32,000 nt of DNA from Zymomonas mobilis subsp. mobilis ATCC 10988 (GCF_000175255.2 NC_017262.1:120001-152000), one strand, 5' to 3'; shown: positions 3,679-17,343, counted from the first letter of the stretch. Made by a program: numbers and translations. Notes: generated by a model from the sequence alone, not told the origin.

Positions 3679-4137
3679 ATGTTTGATGTCGCCCCTTCAG
3701 AACTTTTACTCGTTGCGGTGGTCGCCTTGGTGGTGATCGGGCCCAAAGACCTACCCCGCGCTATGCGGGTCGTCGGTCGATGGCTCGGGAAAGCACGGAA
3801 ATTGAGCCGTCATTTCCGTTCCGGTATTGATGAAATGATTCGTCAATCCGAAATGGAAGATATGGAAAAACGCTGGGCAGAAGAAAACGCCAAGCTGCTT
3901 GCCGAAAATCAGGGGCAGGGCAATCAAACCGCTTCGACTTCTTCGCCAGCTACCCCATCGCCTGTTTCCGATGATCCAGCCGAACAAAATATTGTCTTCG
4001 CGTCTCCCGCTGATTTGGAAGTGAATACGGCAGACACAAGCCATCTTGCCGCCAATCATACGGAAACAGCCGCAACGACCGCTGCCTCGACTCCGGCCAC
4101 GCCCAAAGAAGCCGACCAGCAGGAAAAACAATCATGA
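3679..4137 (+). CDS. tatB: twin-arginine translocase subunit TatB
   Basis: MFDVAPSELLLVAVVALVVIGPKDLPRAMRVVGRWLGKAR is the TatB-type N-terminus. The gene overlaps the tatC start by 4 nt. Confidence 0.9.
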   Translation: MFDVAPSELLLVAVVALVVIGPKDLPRAMRVVGRWLGKARKLSRHFRSGIDEMIRQSEMEDMEKRWAEENAKLLAENQGQGNQTASTSSPATPSPVSDDPAEQNIVFASPADLEVNTADTSHLAANHTETAATTAASTPATPKEADQQEKQS

Positions 4138-4922
4138 GCGAGACGGACGACATTCATGACGAAGTGGATGAAAGCGCAGCCCCGCTGCTCGATCATCTTC
4201 TTGAATTACGAAAAAGACTACTCATCAGCTTGGTCGCCCTAGGCATAGCGTTCCTGCTTTGCCTCCATTTTTCCCGCTCTATTTTTGCGTTTCTGGTGCA
4301 ACCCTTACTTCGGGCAGGACAGGGCAGGCTGATCTATACTGATATTTTTGAAGCCTTTTTTGTCGATATCAAGGTGGCCTTTTTCGCCGCTATCATGCTC
4401 GCTTTTCCGATTGTCGCCATGCAGATATGGCGCTTTATCGCTCCGGGGCTTTACAGCAATGAAAAAAGGGCTTTCCTGCCTTTCTTGGTCATGACGCCGC
4501 TGTTATTTTTGGTCGGTGCCTCTATGGCCTATTATGTCGCCATGCCTATCGCCCTTCATTTTCTGCTCGGCTATCAAGGCAATATTGGCGGCGTGCAGCA
4601 AACGGCTCTACCCGCAGTCGGTAATTACCTGAATTTTGTGACAAAATTCATCTTCGGCTTTGGTGTCGCTTTTCTTCTGCCCCTCGTGCTGCTGCTGCTG
4701 GAACGGGCAGGCTTTGTCACTCGCCAACAATTGGTTGCAGGCCGTCGCTATGCGATTGTCGCCTCTGTGGCCATCGCTGCGGTTTTAACCCCGCCTGATA
4801 TCGTTTCACAATTATTGCTTGGGGTGCCTCTGATCCTGCTTTATGAAATGGCCTTGCTCGCTATGCTTTTCGGCGAAAAACGCCGCAAAAAAGAGACCGA
4901 CCTCGTCGTTGCAGAAGACTAA
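4134..4922 (+). CDS. tatC: twin-arginine translocase subunit TatC
   Basis: 262-aa polytopic membrane protein, N-terminal LLDHLLELRKRL motif, position after tatAB. Confidence 0.95.
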   Translation: MSETDDIHDEVDESAAPLLDHLLELRKRLLISLVALGIAFLLCLHFSRSIFAFLVQPLLRAGQGRLIYTDIFEAFFVDIKVAFFAAIMLAFPIVAMQIWRFIAPGLYSNEKRAFLPFLVMTPLLFLVGASMAYYVAMPIALHFLLGYQGNIGGVQQTALPAVGNYLNFVTKFIFGFGVAFLLPLVLLLLERAGFVTRQQLVAGRRYAIVASVAIAAVLTPPDIVSQLLLGVPLILLYEMALLAMLFGEKRRKKETDLVVAED

Positions 4923-5011: not shown

Positions 5012-5405
5012 ATCTAAGCAACTGCCTGCGCGGCAGTGAACAGATTTATCCACGCGCCAAGTCTTCCGTGGTCATTTCTAAGCTGCCTGTGCGGCAGTGA
5101 ACAGCCTGTCGCTGGTGGCCGGTAGCCTGTCGCTTTTCTAAGCTGCCTGTGCGGCAGTGAACTCTTGGTGTAGGACCGGTCGGCATAGGATTAAATTTCT
5201 AAGCTGCCTGTGCGGCAGTGAACTTGCAAGTTTAACTTCACATCAATCTGTAAAATTTTCTAAGCTGCCTGTGCGGCAGTGAACTTACCTATCCGCTTAT
5301 TTGAAGCGAACAATATTTTCTAAGCTGCCTGTGCGGCAGTGAACCGACTGCCGGACGTTCTGCGACACCTGAAATATTTCTAAGCTGCCTGTGCGGCAGT
5401 GAACT
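5012..5405 (-). CRISPR. type I-F CRISPR array, 7 repeats / 6 spacers, transcribed on the minus strand
   Basis: 28-nt repeat TTTCTAAGCTGCCTGTGCGGCAGTGAAC at 5076, 5136, 5197, 5258, 5318 and 5378. Its reverse complement, GTTCACTGCCGCACAGGCAGCTTAGAAA, is the I-F (Cas6f hairpin CTGCC...GGCAG) repeat family. A degenerate terminal copy sits at 5012-5042 (3-nt insertion, T>C). Spacers are 33/32/33/33/32/32 nt: 5043-5075, 5104-5135, 5164-5196, 5225-5257, 5286-5317, 5346-5377. Confidence 0.97.
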
Positions 5406-5560
5406 AGAGGCAAAAGATAGAATTGCCCCTAAAATAAAGGGATATCTCGCCAAAAAGGCAAAATAACCCTAAAAAATACGCCCATATGTAACATATTGAA
5501 TTGAAAGGATTTTTTATACCCTCGAAAAAAGAGGGTCAAAATAAGGGTCAAATTTGATCC
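5406..5560 (-). promoter_or_regulatory. CRISPR leader (A/T-rich) with candidate promoter and IHF-like site
   Basis: It abuts the intact, non-degenerate end of the array. On the minus strand there is TTGACC (rc 5535-5540; a second copy at rc 5547-5552), a 15-nt spacer, then TATAAA (rc 5514-5519). ATTCAATATGTTA on the minus strand around 5486-5498 matches the IHF consensus WATCAANNNNTTR with one mismatch. A 13-bp palindrome ATATGTAACATAT lies at 5485-5497. Confidence 0.55.
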
Positions 5561-5924
5561 CGCAAGAATCTTCACAATATCAAAAAGCCATCAATTCTTT
5601 AGGCCATGCTAATAAGAAAATCCATACTCAAGGCTAATACACACCGCTATTCTCTCGACCAATCTTCAGCGATGGGCAGCATTGAATGGCTCTTATTACC
5701 GTCTATCTTCGCTATGCTAGGGCTGAAAACTAAACGCATCCATTCCAAGACCTTCACTCGGCCATAAGGATGCCAACGTCAGAAAATAGGATATCGCGCA
5801 TTATCCGCGGTTAAAACAGCTTACAAAGGCAGCCATGCCGCAACAGGCCAAAATTAAACTCAATTTCGGCTATGCTTCAAAAATATACGGCGGTGTCTAA
5901 TCCAAAACCACGCGATAAAAGGAT

Positions 5925-5953
5925 AAAAAAGGCCGCTCTTCAAAAGAGCGACC
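5925..5953 (-). terminator. rho-independent terminator of the small lipoprotein gene
   Basis: The minus strand reads GGTCGCTCT-TTTGA-AGAGCGGCC (9-bp stem including one G.U) followed by TTTTTTATCC. It begins 8 nt after the stop codon at 5961. Confidence 0.75.
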
Positions 5954-5960
5954 TTATATT

Positions 5961-6095
5961 TTATTTATTTCTTTCAGCCGAATTAGACATCGACTGTCCG
6001 GCAGAAGAAAGATCTTGCCCGAAACCCTGTACCGTATTGCAAGCCGCCAAGGCCAAAACAGCGGATGCCATTAAACAATGTATCAAAATACGCAT
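5961..6095 (-). CDS. entericidin A/B-family small lipoprotein (44 aa)
   Basis: Below the ORF-track size cutoff. The reverse complement translates to MRILIHCLMASAVLALAACNTVQGFGQDLSSAGQSMSNSAERNK. It has a lipobox LAAC, and CNTxxGxGxDlxxxGxxisxxA resembles E. coli EcnA/EcnB. A GGGGGA SD lies 4-5 nt upstream, and a dedicated terminator follows. Confidence 0.8.
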   Translation of the reverse strand: MRILIHCLMASAVLALAACNTVQGFGQDLSSAGQSMSNSAERNK

Positions 6096-6224
6096 TATTC
6101 CCCCATCCGGTGCCTTATCTGCACCTTGTTCCAGATTTCATAAACGCTCTGGCATATGAAGAAATCGCCTTCACAGCAAAGTTCTTTTACTGAATTTATA
6201 TGAACCACAGAATAATGAAAAAAC

Positions 6225-6332
6225 ACAAAAAAATGACCCGGAATGTCAGTGAGGGGGGAGGAGGAGACATTCCGGATCATGAATTTTAAGAAAGTCAGGC
6301 TAAGGGGGGATAAGCCTACGGACAATCTTGCC
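6225..6332 (-). ncRNA. candidate ~105-nt sRNA with C-rich anti-SD loops (CcsR/cuckoo-like)
   Basis: Minus strand. Hairpin 1 is AGGCT/AGCCT (6317-6313 / 6301-6297) with loop UAUCCCCCCUU. Hairpin 2 is a perfect 10-bp stem CCGGAATGTC/GACATTCCGG (6275-6266 / 6247-6238) with the 18-nt loop UCCUCCUCCCCCCUCACU, followed by GUCAUUUUUUUGUGUUUUUUC. The ends are estimates: the 5' end from the upstream promoter-like motif and the 3' end from the U-tract. Confidence 0.5.
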
Positions 6333-6337
6333 AATAG

Positions 6338-6362
6338 AACTGACCGTGAAAAGGAAAGTTCC
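6338..6362 (-). promoter_or_regulatory. sigma-EcfG-type promoter candidate (GGAAC-N16-AGTT) upstream of the sRNA
   Basis: Minus strand: GGAAC (6362-6358), 16 nt, AGTT (6341-6338). The published alphaproteobacterial GSR promoter consensus is GGAAC-N16-17-CGTT. There is one mismatch, at the C. Confidence 0.4.
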
Positions 6363-6463
6363 AAGCTCCCGCATTATTTTTGTCGATTTTTAAGCACGCC
6401 CATAAAAAGGCATATCAGAACAAAAATATCGCCTATCACAAAGCCGACAACGTTTATCAGGGC

Positions 6464-8116
6464 TTAATCCGGCAATATATCGATATCGTAGTAATAATAG
6501 CCGTCTTCTTCTTTCTCTACCGATTTACCGCCTAACTGCCGCCCAAAGGCGCTGATAATCCGCCGAATAACTTCATTGCCCTTACGGGAAGATAGCTGTT
6601 TCAAGGCCTCGGCTCGGATCTCCAAGCCCGCATGGTCGGGGGTATTTTCAAATTCGGCGCTATGACGATGCAAAATAATGGTGATCGGTAACAACGGATC
6701 AACCGCCAAAGAAAAATCGACAATTTCGACCAGAATAAAGGCAATCGGCATCGCCTTTTCCAAAGGTACAAAAACCTGATCTATCTCGGTTTCAATCTGA
6801 AAATTCTTTTCAAATGTCTGCAAACTGGTTTGTAACCCGTTGACCAATTCCTTAATCAGCAAGGATAAATCCAGCCCTTGGCCTTTATCTAGCTCATTAT
6901 AATATTGGCGCTGAACAATCGCCAAAGCATTTACCCGCCGCTGGATAGTCGCATAGGCGGATTTTTCTTTAGCGGTTTCAGCTCGACGGCTGTGAATACT
7001 CAATAGGCTGGACACAACTTGAAGGTTGTTTTTCACCCGATGATGCACTTCACGGGTCAACATTTTTTGATGCTGTAAGGCATTGCGGAGGGCGCGTTCA
7101 TGGGCAGCCAATCTAACCGCAACATGATAAAAGGCCTTGCTAACCTGCCTAATTTCTCTTGCCGCCCCAATCGAAGCCGGTTTTATCTTTTGTATTTCGC
7201 CCGTCTTGCCATAATCGACAATCGCCCTTTGGGTGCGCCGCAAGGGGCGCAACAGCATATAATGGACAACAACCCAACCAATGCTCGCCGTCATAAACCA
7301 GATCAACACGGGCAACAAAACAAACAGCAAATCGACTTTTCTAAAGGGGGGCAGGTTGTTATCGTAAATCAGGTTAATAGAATTATCAAAAGTCGGAATA
7401 ACAACCGGATGGCTTTGCTTTAATAAAGGCTTCTTCGGCGAAATTAACGGCAATAAATGGCTTTTTTGGGCTAGAAAAAGCGCCGATCCATCCGGCACAA
7501 CCTTCCGCTCGATTATTTTCAATAAAGAATCTCGGCCAATCTGTCCGACAACCAGATATTTTGACAGCGGATAATGCCCACCCAGAAAAGAGAATTGAAG
7601 CTGTCCCTCATTTTCCAGAATATCGACATTATAAAAGTTATTTGCACCCAGCGGCTTAAAAGGCAAAAGCACGGCCGTATTCACTTTAAAATTGTCGCTT
7701 TTGCACAGTAAACGCCCCGATGTATCCATCAAGGCATAATCCACTGGGACGAAACCAAGGCTTTGCATATGCTGAATCAGAAGGGAACATTCGCCCATAT
7801 CGGCAAAATCATAGCTACCTTCTTCGTCAAAGATATTTCTGACATCATAGGCCAAAATATCGATAGAATCGTCAATCGTGCGCGCGCTCTCAGTCGCAAT
7901 AAGCTGCGCTTCTTTTTGGTGATTAAGGCGGTATTGATGGGACGAAGCGATAAACGCCCCAAGTGCAACAAAACTCGGCGGAAGCTGTGCCAAACTTAAA
8001 ACCACCAACATCCGAAACCATGTAGGCATGGAAACGAAAAGCAGAAATAACCGACGGGTCAAAAGCTGCTTTTTGTGGAAGGTTTTTGAAGGCGAATTTT
8101 TAAAAAATGCCTTCAT
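6464..8116 (-). CDS. membrane HisKA_2 histidine kinase-like protein, PhyT/PhyP-like (catalytic domain apparently degenerate)
   Basis: 550 aa with two TM segments flanking a ~220-aa periplasmic region and a HAMP-like linker. The H-box is EVHHRVKNNLQVVSSLL (HisKA_2 type). In the C-terminal region, by-eye alignment finds no N-box Asn (VEIVDFSL where ELvtNAlK is expected) and no DxGxG G1 box. It lies 26 nt downstream of the nepR-like ORF. Confidence 0.85.
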   Translation of the reverse strand: MKAFFKNSPSKTFHKKQLLTRRLFLLFVSMPTWFRMLVVLSLAQLPPSFVALGAFIASSHQYRLNHQKEAQLIATESARTIDDSIDILAYDVRNIFDEEGSYDFADMGECSLLIQHMQSLGFVPVDYALMDTSGRLLCKSDNFKVNTAVLLPFKPLGANNFYNVDILENEGQLQFSFLGGHYPLSKYLVVGQIGRDSLLKIIERKVVPDGSALFLAQKSHLLPLISPKKPLLKQSHPVVIPTFDNSINLIYDNNLPPFRKVDLLFVLLPVLIWFMTASIGWVVVHYMLLRPLRRTQRAIVDYGKTGEIQKIKPASIGAAREIRQVSKAFYHVAVRLAAHERALRNALQHQKMLTREVHHRVKNNLQVVSSLLSIHSRRAETAKEKSAYATIQRRVNALAIVQRQYYNELDKGQGLDLSLLIKELVNGLQTSLQTFEKNFQIETEIDQVFVPLEKAMPIAFILVEIVDFSLAVDPLLPITIILHRHSAEFENTPDHAGLEIRAEALKQLSSRKGNEVIRRIISAFGRQLGGKSVEKEEDGYYYYDIDILPD

Positions 8117-8142
8117 AAAGCACCGATCCGTATCGTTATCAA

Positions 8143-8355
8143 TTAGTTGAGTTTTGCCAAAAGGGCTAGAAGGTCATCAGGCACCGCTTCTTCAACCGTC
8201 TGCTGATAGACATTACGCAAGGCAAAACCGATTGCGTTTTTTCGATCTTCCGCCTGTTTTGCCGATTCATCAGCATGTGCGGCATTTCCGGAAGAAGCCG
8301 GTAATTCTTGGGATACTGGCCTTTTATGGTTATGTGCTGTCATGCTGCCATTCAT
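8143..8355 (-). CDS. nepR: NepR-family anti-sigma factor (anti-sigma-EcfG) candidate
   Basis: 70-aa ORF whose C-terminal AIGFALRNVYQQTVEEAVPDDLLALLAKLN fits the NepR signature (IG..LR..Y......P.P..F..LL..L). The N-terminus is disordered and charged. The size is typical and it is co-oriented with a HisKA_2 kinase. Confidence 0.7.
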   Translation of the reverse strand: MNGSMTAHNHKRPVSQELPASSGNAAHADESAKQAEDRKNAIGFALRNVYQQTVEEAVPDDLLALLAKLN

Positions 8356-8593
8356 CTTAGTTATTCTATGATTGGGTCGGATACGGTTCAGTCTTACCGA
8401 GGTAATCTATCTTTCTTATTATAAGATCCATTCATTCTGTCCAGAATCATTATAAAATTTCAACCACAAAAAATGGCTGGATTGATAAGAATTTTTAAAT
8501 TTGATCTACCTCGAAAAAATTTTTCCCTTTTATCCGGATTACAAAATGTCTGACTGGCATTTTCGGTCAGAAAGTGCCAGACTTCATAAAAGA

Positions 8594-8618
8594 AACAAAA
8601 TATTATAGGCTTTGTTCC
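8594..8618 (-). promoter_or_regulatory. sigma-EcfG-type promoter candidate (GGAAC-N16-TGTT) upstream of nepR, overlapping a TATAAT hexamer
   Basis: Minus strand: GGAAC (8618-8614), 16 nt, TGTT (8597-8594). A perfect TATAAT (rc of 8602-8607) lies inside the spacer. The motif is ~240 nt upstream of the nepR ATG. Confidence 0.3.
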
Positions 8619-8699: not shown

Positions 8700-10220
8700 T
8701 TAGTCTTTCTTGGCGTTTCTCGCGGTTGTTTTCGGCACGGAATAGTTCAAAAACGGCGGAATCGGGCCATTCCAATCAATTGCCGTTTCCAAAGCAACCG
8801 GCTTCACACGCCGTAAATTTTCAGGCCGCAATGCCCGTTCCTGAGTCCGCGCCTTGCTAACAGGACGCGAAGCCGTGTTTCTTGGGGCTTGGTTTTTAGG
8901 AAAGTCACTTTCAACACTATCCAGCCGATCCTCTGGTGATTTTTTCGGAGTTTCGGCCTTTCTTGGGGCTTTCCTTGGGCTAGGCGCGGCTGATTTCTCT
9001 TGCGCAGGCTTTGCTTGTTTGGGGCTAACTGCTTCTTCGCTTTTAGACGGATGGGCATTTTTCTTTCTGTTCCCTAATCGAGGAATCTCGACGCCCATCA
9101 ATTTTTCAATCGCGGCTATCGCCTCTTCATCAGCAGGGGTAACAAAGGTCAAAGCCTCTCCACTAGCGCCGCCGCGTCCGGTGCGGCCAATGCGATGGAT
9201 ATAGTCATCAGGATGGGTCGGCACGTCAAAATTAAAGACATGACTGATCCCTTTAACATCCAATCCTCTTGCGGCGATATCGGAAGCAACCAGAACGCTG
9301 ATCTGACCATTTTTGAAGCGCTCAAGCTCACTGCCACGCTCTGGCTGGCTCATATCGCCATGAATCTGACCGACGGAAAAGCCTTGCTGCTCCAAGGTTG
9401 TTGCCAACTGTCTCACGGTCGTTTTACGGTTGCAAAAGATAATCGCCGTATGGTCTTTTTCCGCCCGCAGCATATCGCACAGCTTCTTTTTCTTCGAGCG
9501 GGGCGATACTTCAATCAAACGCTGATCAATCAGGGTATTGGCCGTTGCAGGACGACTGATTTCAATTTGTTTCGGGTTGGACAAGAAACGATCAGCCAGC
9601 TTTTTAATCGCAGGCGGCATCGTCGCTGAAAAAAGCAAAGTCTGACGACTGGTCGGCAATTTCGTGCAAATGGTTTCAATATCGGGAATAAATCCCATAT
9701 CGAGCATCCGGTCAGCTTCATCAATGACCAGCATTTCACAGCTTGAAAGCAGGATTTTCCCCCGCTCGAACAAATCAAGCAAACGTCCGGGGGTTGCAAT
9801 CAAAACATCCACCCCTTTTTCAAGGGCGGCTTGCTGTTCTGCCATCGGGACACCCCCGATTAGCAAAGACATCGATAATTTATGATATTTTCCGTATTTC
9901 TCGAAATTTTCGGCGACTTGAGCGGCCAATTCCCGCGTTGGTTCCAAAATTAGGGAACGCGGCATTCTTGCGCGACACCGCCCATGCGCCAAAATATCAA
10001 TCATCGGCAGAACAAAACTAGCCGTTTTGCCGGTGCCGGTTTGGGCAACCGCGATCAGGTCACGCATCATCAAAACAGACGGGATAGCCGTTGCCTGAAC
10101 AGGGGTGGGTTCTTCATATCCCAATTCGGCAACTGCTTGCAGTAGTTCTTTTGAAAGGCCTAGATCGGCAAAGCTCATGAAATATCTGACCAGAAACAGG
10201 CGATAATCCTTATCGGACAT
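8700..10220 (-). CDS. DEAD-box ATP-dependent RNA helicase (RhlE-like, basic C-terminal tail)
   Basis: Contains AQTGTGKT (motif I), VIDEADRML (DEAD), SAT, HRIGRTGR and a lysine/arginine/proline-rich tail. The conserved N-terminus MSFADLGLS suggests the true start may be ATG 10178 rather than 10220. Confidence 0.93.
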   Translation of the reverse strand: MSDKDYRLFLVRYFMSFADLGLSKELLQAVAELGYEEPTPVQATAIPSVLMMRDLIAVAQTGTGKTASFVLPMIDILAHGRCRARMPRSLILEPTRELAAQVAENFEKYGKYHKLSMSLLIGGVPMAEQQAALEKGVDVLIATPGRLLDLFERGKILLSSCEMLVIDEADRMLDMGFIPDIETICTKLPTSRQTLLFSATMPPAIKKLADRFLSNPKQIEISRPATANTLIDQRLIEVSPRSKKKKLCDMLRAEKDHTAIIFCNRKTTVRQLATTLEQQGFSVGQIHGDMSQPERGSELERFKNGQISVLVASDIAARGLDVKGISHVFNFDVPTHPDDYIHRIGRTGRGGASGEALTFVTPADEEAIAAIEKLMGVEIPRLGNRKKNAHPSKSEEAVSPKQAKPAQEKSAAPSPRKAPRKAETPKKSPEDRLDSVESDFPKNQAPRNTASRPVSKARTQERALRPENLRRVKPVALETAIDWNGPIPPFLNYSVPKTTARNAKKD

Positions 10221-10347: not shown

Positions 10348-10857
10348 TTAGTGTTTAAAAACACCTTCAACCACACGGAATCGGTTAATCAGACATTCGC
10401 CACCCCATCTGGCATAAACAGGATCACGCTTGGCGCATATCTGTCCATCACGGCCTGCATGGACATAAAAACCGGAATAAAAATCAAGGGCAGGGCAATG
10501 CTCCAGATGCGCTCTTATCCGGCTGCCCCCTTTTAACATCAAATCAACGCTATCTTTTTCAGAAACAGCGGCGGCACCAATATCTTCTGGTGAGACGCAT
10601 TTCGGGCCCTTTTTCTCATGCCAGACCGCTTCAGGCGGAGGTGGCGGGGCATTATAGGGCGAATCCGGTGGCGGAGGCGGCGGAGGCAAAGGTCTTTGGT
10701 TGCGACCATTGGCATTTCTGACATTCAAATGGATTTCCATCACACCGGAATGTGGAAAATGGCGGGGCGGCATAGCCGACAGAGGCAAGGAAAAAAACAG
10801 GCATCCCCCGATAACGGGGCGAAGCAAAAATGCGCATCCCTTTTCTATCAATGACAT
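10348..10857 (-). CDS. hypothetical secreted protein with polyproline tract
   Basis: The ORF-track start at 10947 is a TTG. ATG 10857 gives MSLIEKGCAFLLRPVIGGCLFFSLPLSA, which looks like a signal peptide. It is followed by PLPPPPPPPDSPYNAPPPPP and a Cys-containing C-terminal domain. I recognise no family. Confidence 0.5.
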   Translation of the reverse strand: MSLIEKGCAFLLRPVIGGCLFFSLPLSAMPPRHFPHSGVMEIHLNVRNANGRNQRPLPPPPPPPDSPYNAPPPPPEAVWHEKKGPKCVSPEDIGAAAVSEKDSVDLMLKGGSRIRAHLEHCPALDFYSGFYVHAGRDGQICAKRDPVYARWGGECLINRFRVVEGVFKH

Positions 10858-11104
10858 AATCTTGGCATAAGACCGCAAATTTCCCCTTGCTTTCGCCAGA
10901 GCATGGCAAAAAAAATATGAATTTCCGATGAATCTGATTGAAGTCAATCCATAAAATCCATCAAGATAGAAATAGCTGTTTCTACTTAATTATTCTTTTC
11001 AGTTCTTGTTATTCGTCCTACTATCTCTTCACTTTGACCAAAACGAAACCTACATTCGTTTGGCAAAGAAATGACAAGCCATATTCATTTAGGAGAGCGT
11101 TGTT

Positions 11105-14311: not shown

Positions 14312-14389
14312 GGCGATCGTAGCTCAATTGGTTAGAGCGCCGGTTTGTGGTACCGGAGGTTGCGGGTTCAATTCCCGTCGATCGCCCCA
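14312..14389 (+). tRNA. tRNA-His (GTG)
   Basis: Hand-folded cloverleaf: encoded G-1 opposite C73, acceptor GCGATCG/CGATCGC, D arm GCTC..GAGC, anticodon stem CCGGT/ACCGG with loop TTGTGGT, T arm GCGGG-TTCAATT-CCCGT, and an encoded CCA. Confidence 0.93.
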
Positions 14390-17266: not shown

Positions 17267-17343
17267 GGCGGAGTAGCTCAGCTGGTTAGAGCAGCGGAAT
17301 CATAATCCGCGTGTCGGGGGTTCAAGTCCCTCCTCCGCTACCA
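17267..17343 (+). tRNA. tRNA with CAT anticodon (elongator Met, or Ile2 if lysidine-modified; not initiator)
   Basis: Cloverleaf: acceptor GGCGGAG/CTCCGCT (G1.U72 wobble), D arm GCTC..GAGC, anticodon stem GCGGA/TCCGC with loop ATCATAA, T arm GGGGG-TTCAAGT-CCCTC, and an encoded CCA. It lacks the initiator features (C1xA72 mismatch and three G-C pairs at the anticodon stem base). Confidence 0.9.

Follow-up and report, generated by a model that had tools for sequence, protein, structure and literature searches.

A block on the minus strand of Zymomonas mobilis subsp. mobilis ATCC 10988 is very probably the nepR-phyT-small RNA (sRNA)-ecn arm of the canonical general stress response (GSR) locus of the Sphingomonadaceae, detached from the phyR-ecfG arm by a rearrangement in the Zymomonas lineage. 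The block occupies positions 5925-8618 of a stretch of 32,000 nucleotides (nt) (NC_017262.1:120001-152000), which was analysed as a whole and is called the window here. Its protein-coding part, comprising the anti-sigma factor gene nepR, an orthologue of the phosphotransferase gene phyT and the entericidin-family gene ecn, is ordinary and has an architecture that is already known. The new part is the sRNA encoded between phyT and ecn, a diverged Zymomonas member of an RNA family that is widespread in sphingomonads and missing from Rfam. A preliminary description of the window had recognized a GSR module at this place, which is borne out by the identities of NepR and PhyT, by synteny and by the EcfG-type promoters. 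It had also taken the module to be without phyR and ecfG; this holds locally, as neither gene lies in the 32 kb, and fails genome-wide, as a PhyR gene adjoins an EcfG-type sigma factor gene elsewhere in Zymomonas. The GSR locus is therefore split rather than reduced, and the split is a lineage-specific rearrangement.

NepR, PhyT and entericidin genes

The elements listed in the preliminary description (a NepR open reading frame [ORF], a HisKA_2 gene, a two-hairpin RNA, an entericidin gene and two promoter motifs) were all recovered on the minus strand where it had placed them (Table 1), and profile searches confirmed its three ORF calls with matches to NepR, HisKA_2 and Entericidin. The NepR ORF matches Pfam PF18557 over residues 41-69 with 35.3 bits, above the cut-off of 25.7. 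Against the NCBIfam NepR equivalog, it reaches only 29.7 bits, with a cut-off of 100; therefore, this NepR subfamily has diverged. In essentially all related loci, the NepR ORF stands immediately 5' of the kinase gene, and in the window, the gap between the two is 26 nt.

The kinase-like ORF matches HisKA_2 (64.7 bits) and HWE_HK (32.6 bits) in Pfam and gives no HATPase_c match at E<=1. A HATPase_c-type Pfam domain was likewise absent from 22/22 kinase orthologues at E<=0.1, and the alignment of these orthologues contained no conserved G1/G2 glycine motifs in the C-terminal third. The DHp segment LTREVHHRVKNNLQ with its HRxxN motif is invariant across the 22 orthologues and reads E356-V-H-H-R-V-K-N-N in the window protein. 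As read from the sequence, two hydrophobic segments bracket a periplasmic region (residues ~60-265), and a HAMP domain was found in 15 of the 22 orthologues. According to its published description, PhyT (formerly PhyP) is anchored in the membrane, has a periplasmic domain, carries HRxxN in its DHp domain and possesses a degenerate ATPase domain (PMC5898713). On the grounds of this shared architecture and of synteny with S. melonis genes #1443 and #1444, the window kinase is taken to be the orthologue of S. melonis PhyT. Two cysteines of the predicted periplasmic domain, C110 and C138, are invariant in all 22 aligned orthologues and could, judging from this conservation, form a disulfide or a redox-sensing site.

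The window kinase is 99% identical to other Z. mobilis proteins. Its 90% cluster (21 members) includes AAV89840.1 of strain ZM4 and contains no frameshifts, only differences in length or annotated start. The homologue search returned no NCBI-sourced kinase matches with identities between 68% and 89%. In Z. mobilis, the transcript of the corresponding gene, ZMO1216, is higher in aerobic stationary culture (PMC2651186).

The ecn ORF matches Pfam PF08085 (Entericidin) with 33.7 bits against a cut-off of 23.3, and its product scores 29-30 bits against the NCBIfam entericidin equivalogs, below their cut-offs of 86-94. Like EcnA and EcnB of enterobacteria, the encoded lipoprotein of 44 amino acids (aa) carries an Entericidin domain and is linked to a stress response; in contrast to the ecnA/ecnB antidote-toxin pair, a single gene is present in the window. 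Within the Zymomonas lineage, the ratio of nonsynonymous to synonymous substitution rates (dN/dS) is 0.13-0.15 for nepR, 0.07 for the kinase gene and 0.04-0.16 for ecn. The three genes are thus under purifying selection, which argues against a relic. Between the window and a relative at 89% identity (L003:8812-9024; compared loci are cited by L numbers), the dS of nepR is 0.16, far below that of the kinase gene (1.0) and ecn (1.1), and the upstream leader of nepR is likewise well conserved. The low nepR value, a noisy estimate from only 70 codons, could reflect nucleotide-level constraint or recent exchange.

The canonical sphingomonad locus

Full-length homologues of the kinase occur across Sphingomonas at 30-36% identity. 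In S. prati, S. profundi, S. nostoxanthinifaciens and a contig from the Joint Genome Institute (JGI), ecfG, an ORF for a membrane protein of 45-47 aa and phyR run on one strand; divergent from phyR run nepR, the kinase gene and an entericidin ORF, beyond which tatC-tatB-tatA lie in the opposite orientation. The alignment of the 22 kinase orthologues was used to scan JGI metagenomes, which yielded 80 further loci. Locus counts are restricted to loci with sufficient flanking sequence, namely at least 1100 nt upstream of nepR for phyR, at least 2300 nt for ecfG and at least 350 nt downstream of the kinase gene for the sRNA. A divergent phyR stands beside nepR in 63/63 of the metagenomic sphingomonad loci and is followed by ecfG in 51/51.

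This arrangement is also that of the characterized locus of S. melonis Fr1, where NepR is encoded by #1444, PhyT by #1443 and EcfG by #1447 (PMC6599016; PMC5898713). The neighbouring gene #1442 encodes a "predicted small secreted protein" that is EcfG-dependent (log2 -4.7) and has the motif GGAACGAATGGCCCGACCGATCATT (PMC6599016). The window shares with S. melonis the order of nepR, a PhyT-type HisKA_2 protein gene and a small lipoprotein gene with tatC downstream, the HRxxN motif and degenerate ATPase domain of PhyT, and EcfG-type promoters before nepR-phyT and the small protein gene. It differs in that phyR and ecfG of Zymomonas have been relocated beside a Peptidase_M23 gene, ecn and tatC are separated by a CRISPR array, and the ecn-specific EcfG promoter is degenerate. 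The S. melonis publications (PMC6599016, PMC5898713), for their part, mention no sRNA between #1443 and #1442.

Two expectations of the preliminary description need revision in this light. It had assumed that nepR normally sits beside ecfG, which is not the rule in the Sphingomonadaceae: there, nepR is followed by a PhyT-type gene, and phyR and ecfG lie across a divergent promoter region. Nor is the coupling of nepR to a kinase-like gene uncharacterized, since nepR-kinase-small lipoprotein-tatC is the standard order and equals the S. melonis Fr1 locus.

Some variation around this common plan was also seen. An ORF of 45-47 aa with a hydrophobic C-terminal half is conserved between phyR and ecfG in sphingomonads (L001:4507-4644; L010:2840-2983; L091:1957-2094; L092:1943-2080) and has no Pfam match; the Zymomonas phyR-ecfG spacer of ~100 nt is without it. 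In L056, L060, L067 and L069, an insertion separates phyT from the sRNA, so that the sRNA-ecn-tatC block lies ~2.2 kb beyond the kinase gene (sRNA at ~7700; kinase end at ~5530), and the RNA remains with ecn and not with phyT.

phyR and ecfG elsewhere in Zymomonas

A tblastn search of the 32-kb window with Sphingomonas PhyR and EcfG queries found neither protein. The preliminary description had left the whole genome to be searched for the two genes, and tracing them with a primer in Zymomonas found both. The quantitative PCR primer for sigE (ZMO1404) of strain ZM4 (PMC7546472, supplement) was scanned against species-representative genomes and matched one contig, from Zymomonas sp. W26. On the same strand, ~138 nt upstream of the primer site, W26 carries an ORF of 264 aa with the domains PhyR_sigma2 (89.9 bits), PhyR_sigma-like (80.7 bits) and Response_reg. 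The 90% cluster of this W26 PhyR includes AAV90029.1 of ZM4, under the annotation "two-component response regulator", together with proteins of numerous further Z. mobilis strains. The gene order in Z. mobilis subsp. pomaceae is abhydrolase, phyR, an extracytoplasmic function (ECF) sigma factor gene (233 aa) and Peptidase_M23. This PhyR scores 358.6 bits against an NCBIfam PhyR cut-off of 240, and the sigma factor shares 70% identity with EcfG of S. prati across 193 residues and matches PhyR_sigma2. ZMO1403 has been termed a peptidase (PMC12502597). We infer that phyR is ZMO1405 and ecfG is ZMO1404, ~190 genes from nepR-phyT, the tag for phyR being derived from accession offsets and the annotation of neighbours.

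ZMO1404 is named rpoE or sigE in the Zymomonas literature and sigma-70 in one paper. As it lies directly 3' of a bona fide phyR and its pomaceae orthologue is 70% identical to EcfG (L004:1576-2370; L005:10001-11590), it is a general-stress sigma factor and not an envelope-stress sigma-E of the Escherichia coli type. Within the Zymomonas literature, we found no relevant report of PhyR, NepR or EcfG; text matches to "PhyR" were to "Phyre2".

EcfG-type promoters

The motif GGAAC-N17-GTT occurs exactly twice in the 32 kb, once before nepR and once before the sRNA (Table 1). The count itself is not significant (0.68 expected; 14/100 shuffles contain at least two). What carries meaning is the placement, as both motifs have conserved promoters of sphingomonads as their orthologues. 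Upstream of nepR, GGAAC-N16/17-NGTT is present in 59/59 loci with coordinates, with the -10 forms TGTT (49 loci), GGTT (6) and AGTT (4), and the window shares the unusual TGTT form. The distance from GGAAC to the kinase start is 337-542 nt in sphingomonad loci (median 419) and 502 nt in the window; in L003, the nepR motif is identical. All 62 copies of the sRNA found by the covariance model described below stand directly behind GGAAC-N16/17-NGTT, with CGTT in 49, GGTT in 8 and AGTT in 5. Among the Zymomonas-lineage sequences, the -10 form of this promoter is AGTT in the window, GGTT in L003 and AGTT in a relative at 68% identity (L009). Both EcfG-type motifs proposed in the preliminary description are thus upheld as orthologues of conserved promoters. 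From its sequence, the TATAAT hexamer between the nepR motif and nepR is a possible housekeeping -10 element for basal expression of nepR-phyT.

The preliminary description had the sRNA promoter driving the entericidin gene as well, which is not the ancestral design. In most sphingomonad loci, ecn has a separate promoter of its own, GGAAC-N16-(G/T)CATT, downstream of the sRNA; in the Zymomonas lineage, an ecn-proximal GGAAC is found without its -10 element. A block TTCATATAA(A/T)T just past the sRNA terminator (window 6195-6204, minus strand) is kept in the window, L003 and L009 and could, from its sequence, serve ecn as a housekeeping -10 element. A further copy of GGAAC lies exactly 10 nt upstream of the sRNA promoter in L003 (10883-10895) and in L010 (6373-6387), within TTGGAACGGTTGGAAC and CAGGAACCCGTCGGAAC; this upstream copy is degenerate in the window (GGGAGC).

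A conserved sRNA family

On the minus strand, positions 6215-6340 of the window fold into two hairpins and a U-tract with -35.4 kcal/mol (z = -5.8), and none of 200 shuffles folds as well. Loop 1 contains six consecutive C and loop 2 contains CCUCCUCCC; both expose a C-run of at least five. In L010, the JGI contig whose kinase is 36% identical, the kinase-ecn spacer of 454 nt holds four ordered elements: (i) GGAAC-N16-CGTT, (ii) a hairpin with the loop ..GCCCCCCCGC.., (iii) another hairpin (loop AUCCUCCCCCC) plus a short U-tract and (iv) GGAAC-N16-TCATT for ecn. The same design was found in all 19 loci first inspected and in 50 loci by a strict regular expression.

A covariance model (R1) built from 44 distinct non-Zymomonas copies gave 62 strong plus-strand matches (56-116 bits) in 61/81 loci, all of them on the kinase strand. 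Of the 64 loci that extend far enough downstream, 56 have the sRNA between the kinase gene and ecn, and the eight loci without it also lack ecn and tatC at that place. An orthologous entericidin ORF follows 3' of the sRNA in 49/53 loci. Cultured species are included (S. profundi CP046535, 88 bits; S. nostoxanthinifaciens CP082839, 85 bits); in S. prati, ecn is present and no sRNA was detected with R1. Paired cells in the R1 structure amount to 97.7%, compared with 92.2% in shuffles. Twelve pairs change on both sides, 11 of them within the 15 pairs of hairpin 2; no observed structure value was attained in 500 shuffles, and slid controls pair just 30-46%. In sphingomonads, hairpin 1 and both loops are nearly invariant, and the stem of hairpin 2 covaries strongly. 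The RNA of the preliminary description is therefore a real conserved element, as seen from its fold, the R1 family and covariation. In L011 (5569-5917), two copies of the sRNA stand in tandem ~217 nt apart, each with its own GGAAC-N16-(C/G)GTT promoter.

On the Zymomonas lineage, R1 scores 23.0 bits for the window (6226-6322, minus strand; E = 3e-4), 23.4 bits for L003 and 33.0 bits for L009, in a range where antisense matches of true copies reach 20-30 bits. As the R1 score alone is weak, the membership of the window RNA rests on its position, its strand, its promoter, both C-run loops, the compensatory changes by which hairpin 2 of L009 differs from that of the window (CCGG/CCGG to CUGG/CCAG) and the intermediate character of L009.

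Rfam 15 contains no family that matches the sRNA at the gathering threshold in the window or in seven related loci. Scr3202, a Streptomyces sRNA, matched L037:5566-5664 with 30.3 bits against a cut-off of 52 (E = 0.012) and was rejected as a sign of membership; it likewise has two hairpins with C-run loops, and the resemblance is probably convergence. SuhB of Sphingopyxis granuli is LysR-regulated and largely GSR-independent, and so is not the same RNA. In the accessible literature, we found no description of the sRNA family in a search that was limited, so that an earlier description elsewhere is possible.

Weighing the alternatives

Five points weigh against the reading of the block as the detached arm of a split GSR locus with its own sRNA. 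(i) In the two Zymomonas-lineage loci examined (L005:9765-10000 and 10790-10888; L007:9772-10000), the coding strand carries no GGAAC-N15-18-NGTT motif ahead of the relocated phyR or ecfG, which means that the autoregulatory wiring may differ from that of S. melonis; judging from these upstream sequences, the rearrangement may have cost phyR and ecfG their autoregulation by EcfG. (A minus-strand GGAAC motif near the pomaceae phyR is absent in W26 and was taken as chance.) (ii) The ZMO1405 tag was reached by accession arithmetic and neighbour annotation and was not read from a record. (iii) The R1 score of the window, 23 bits, is no higher than that of antisense matches of genuine copies. (iv) The stem of hairpin 1 in Zymomonas is unlike the near-invariant sphingomonad hairpin 1 and aligns poorly to R1. 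(v) The supplement text of Zymomonas studies of transcription start sites (TSS) and sRNAs (PMC7566282, PMC6970203) contains none of the locus tags of this block and none of its promoter or sRNA sequences, and offers no transcript, TSS or stress-induction data for the locus.

Point (i), together with the lack of phyR and ecfG in the 32-kb window, could be taken to indicate a self-contained or rewired module, with NepR and the kinase-like protein operating independently of PhyR and EcfG, NepR perhaps holding another sigma factor or the kinase acting directly on NepR. We regard this as highly improbable: the intact phyR beside an EcfG-type sigma factor gene in Z. mobilis, subsp. pomaceae and W26 largely refutes it, the pairing of nepR with the kinase gene is the normal sphingomonad design, and both EcfG-type promoters are kept at orthologous positions. 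It is scarcely credible, either, that the block is a decaying, non-functional remnant of the separation from phyR-ecfG. The split of the locus and the loss of the -10 element from the ecn-specific EcfG promoter would agree with decay, but three diverged sequences of the Zymomonas lineage keep all three ORFs intact (dN/dS 0.04-0.16), the promoters and RNA hairpins are conserved, the hairpins with compensatory changes, and ZMO1216 is expressed and regulated (PMC2651186).

For the RNA itself, the main rival is that the two-hairpin element acts in cis, either as a 5' leader or attenuator of ecn or as a terminator or processing signal of the phyT transcript. The element is invariably placed between phyT and ecn, in their orientation, its start precedes that of ecn by a median of 214 nt, GC-rich sphingomonads have a weak U-tract after hairpin 2 (AAAUUGUAUUU), and the Zymomonas ecn has no recognisable EcfG promoter of its own. 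Nevertheless, a cis element appears unlikely, given an own EcfG-type promoter in 62/62 copies and a second, separate ecn promoter downstream in most loci. Moreover, the loops are the most conserved part, as is typical of seed regions, each of the tandem copies of L011 has its own promoter, the RNA occurs without a detected ecn in four loci, S. prati has ecn without the RNA, and a strong terminator closes the Zymomonas copy. Membership of the cuckoo family (CcsR, ar14 and ar7; the CCUCCUCCC sRNAs) is very doubtful, although loop 2 of the window contains that nonamer and sub-threshold Rfam matches were obtained to ar7 (17.4 bits), CcsR1 (13.4 bits) and ar14 (12.9 bits). These scores are far below the gathering cut-offs (60, 65.3 and 58.8, respectively), loop 1 is without CCUCCUCCC, and the sphingomonad consensus loops are GCCCCCCCGC and UCCUCCCCCCC. 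The nonamer, which might have been read as a sign of the family, is a Zymomonas-lineage variant of the C-run loop, and the RNA falls outside the family definition. The cuckoo RNAs (CcsR1-4/RSs0680, ar14, ar7) do resemble the sRNA in their adjacent hairpins with C-rich, anti-Shine-Dalgarno-like loops, in their link to stress and in the nonamer of the Zymomonas loop 2; however, they adjoin DUF1127 genes and not the GSR locus, the nonamer is missing from loop 1 and the family consensus, and reports of them are confined to Rhodobacteraceae and Rhizobiales, where their genomic surroundings are different (PMC4615179).

Possible function of the sRNA

The closest functional precedent for the sRNA is GsrN of Caulobacter, an RNA of ~100 nt that depends directly on sigma-T/EcfG and in which six tandem C in an exposed 5' loop pair with G-tracts such as that of the katG leader (PMC5869019). 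GsrN-like, EcfG-dependent sRNAs usually adjoin the GSR locus, and Erythrobacter litoralis, the species of Sphingomonadales examined, has no apparent gsrN-like gene (PMC5869019). The sphingomonad RNA and GsrN are alike in their length of ~100 nt, an EcfG-type promoter, their place beside core GSR regulators, a 5' hairpin loop exposing six or seven C and an intrinsic terminator; by contrast, the sphingomonad RNA has C-runs in both loops, the comparison with GsrN being one of descriptions only. With GsrN as the precedent, we propose a trans-acting sRNA with C-rich seed loops. By this analogy, it most likely acts like GsrN, being EcfG-dependent and pairing with G-rich leaders or Shine-Dalgarno sequences.

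The nepR leader itself may be of interest here. In 34/71 distinct loci (L001, L017-L084; e.g., L018 and L037), an in-frame TTG start of nepR is preceded, at a distance of 8-12 nt, by a run of five to seven G (consensus CAGCGGGGGGCGGUCGGUUUG), and these 34 account for 34 of the 46 G-runs in the 230-nt nepR segments. Its sequence complements that of the sRNA loop GCCCCCCCGC. For Caulobacter, co-purification of nepR mRNA with GsrN has been reported, with GGGGGGCG as the predicted site (PMC5869019, Table 1). No such G-run is present at the nepR of Zymomonas, which has an ATG start, and S. prati has a G-run and no sRNA. Pairing of the sRNA loops with the G5 run of the Zymomonas ecn ribosome-binding site was considered and rejected, as it amounts to only ~6-7 bp by eye and is not conserved in L009.

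Taken together, our tentative reading, which we hold with somewhat less than even confidence, is that the sRNA is an undescribed, Sphingomonadaceae-wide, EcfG-dependent riboregulator, an analogue of GsrN and perhaps anciently related to it, whose C-rich loops act on G-rich translation-initiation regions, with nepR maybe among its targets; in Zymomonas, it would belong to one GSR with ZMO1404 that stands behind tolerance to ethanol and inhibitors.

Layout of the window

The neighbours of the block are those named in the preliminary description, a DEAD-box helicase gene (8700-10220) on the nepR side and a CRISPR array (5075-5404; six repeats, Rfam CRISPR-DR4, minus strand) on the other. The helicase gene occupies the place of phyR in other sphingomonads. 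The array sits between ecn and tatC, and tatB and tatC are kept at 3679-4922. Other sphingomonads have tatC soon after ecn on the opposite strand, whereas in the window the repeats (5075-5404) and positions 5405-5925 lie between the two; in L003, a carboxylesterase-family gene (Pfam COesterase/Abhydrolase_3) occupies the corresponding spot. Two plus-strand tRNA genes (14313-14386 and 17267-17340; Rfam tRNA, 70.4 and 65 bits) have no relation to the GSR block.

Table 1. Features of the GSR block, with positions counted from the first nucleotide of the window
Feature	Position	Strand	Basis
nepR-phyT EcfG-type promoter motif, GGAAC-N16-TGTT	8594..8618	(-)	Exact motif match; conserved orthologous position
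TATAAT hexamer in block TTTTATAATGATTCT.GACAG	8449..8454	(-)	Block kept in all three Zymomonas-lineage sequences (alignment)
nepR, 70 aa, anti-sigma factor	8143..8355	(-)	Pfam NepR match
phyT (formerly phyP) orthologue, ZMO1216, 550 aa	6464..8116	(-)	HisKA_2/HWE, degenerate ATPase domain, synteny
sRNA EcfG-type promoter motif, GGAAC-N16-AGTT	6338..6362	(-)	Motif match; precedes sRNA copies elsewhere
sRNA, ~105 nt	6226..6332	(-)	Fold, covariance model, position; 5' end predicted from -10 element
sRNA hairpin 1	6288-6329, loop 6302-6312 (UAUCCCCCCUU)	(-)	Fold
sRNA hairpin 2	6233-6280, loop 6248-6265 (UCUCCUCCUCCCCCCUCA)	(-)	Fold
sRNA U-tract	6225-6231	(-)	
ecn, entericidin-family lipoprotein gene, 44 aa, lipobox LAAC	5961..6095	(-)	Pfam Entericidin match
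ecn intrinsic terminator	5929..5955	(-)	12-bp stem followed by TTTTAT

Proposed mechanism and significance

In the scenario that we favour, the breakpoint of the rearrangement would lie in or beside the old divergent phyR/nepR promoter region, now flanked by the DEAD-box helicase gene, and the phyR-ecfG arm survives ~190 genes off as ZMO1405-ZMO1404. The mechanism is drawn by analogy with S. melonis Fr1, and we infer all of its biochemical steps, its stress induction and the trans-action and targets of the sRNA. Stress kinases would phosphorylate a single-domain response regulator, from which the membrane phosphotransferase PhyT would pass phosphate to PhyR; phospho-PhyR would then capture NepR, freeing sigma-EcfG. 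EcfG-RNA polymerase at the nepR-phyT promoter would make more NepR and PhyT, a negative feedback, and at the sRNA promoter it would make the ~105-nt sRNA, whose C-run loops would most likely pair with G-rich leaders or Shine-Dalgarno sequences of target mRNAs. Because the ancestral EcfG promoter of ecn has decayed in Zymomonas, ecn is probably expressed there by terminator read-through or from a housekeeping promoter.

For Zymomonas, these results mean that ZMO1404, which has been studied as rpoE/sigE for its part in tolerance to ethanol, furfural and acetate, is an EcfG-type general-stress sigma factor. With PhyR adjacent to it and NepR and PhyT at ZMO1215-1216, its partners can be named, which gives a concrete regulatory model for an industrial organism. 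For the sphingomonads, a highly conserved, promoter-defined sRNA lies inside the GSR locus, cultured Sphingomonas included, and through it the GsrN concept would reach an order in which RNAs of this kind had not been seen. If nepR is indeed a target, the core GSR switch would itself contain a post-transcriptional feedback loop.

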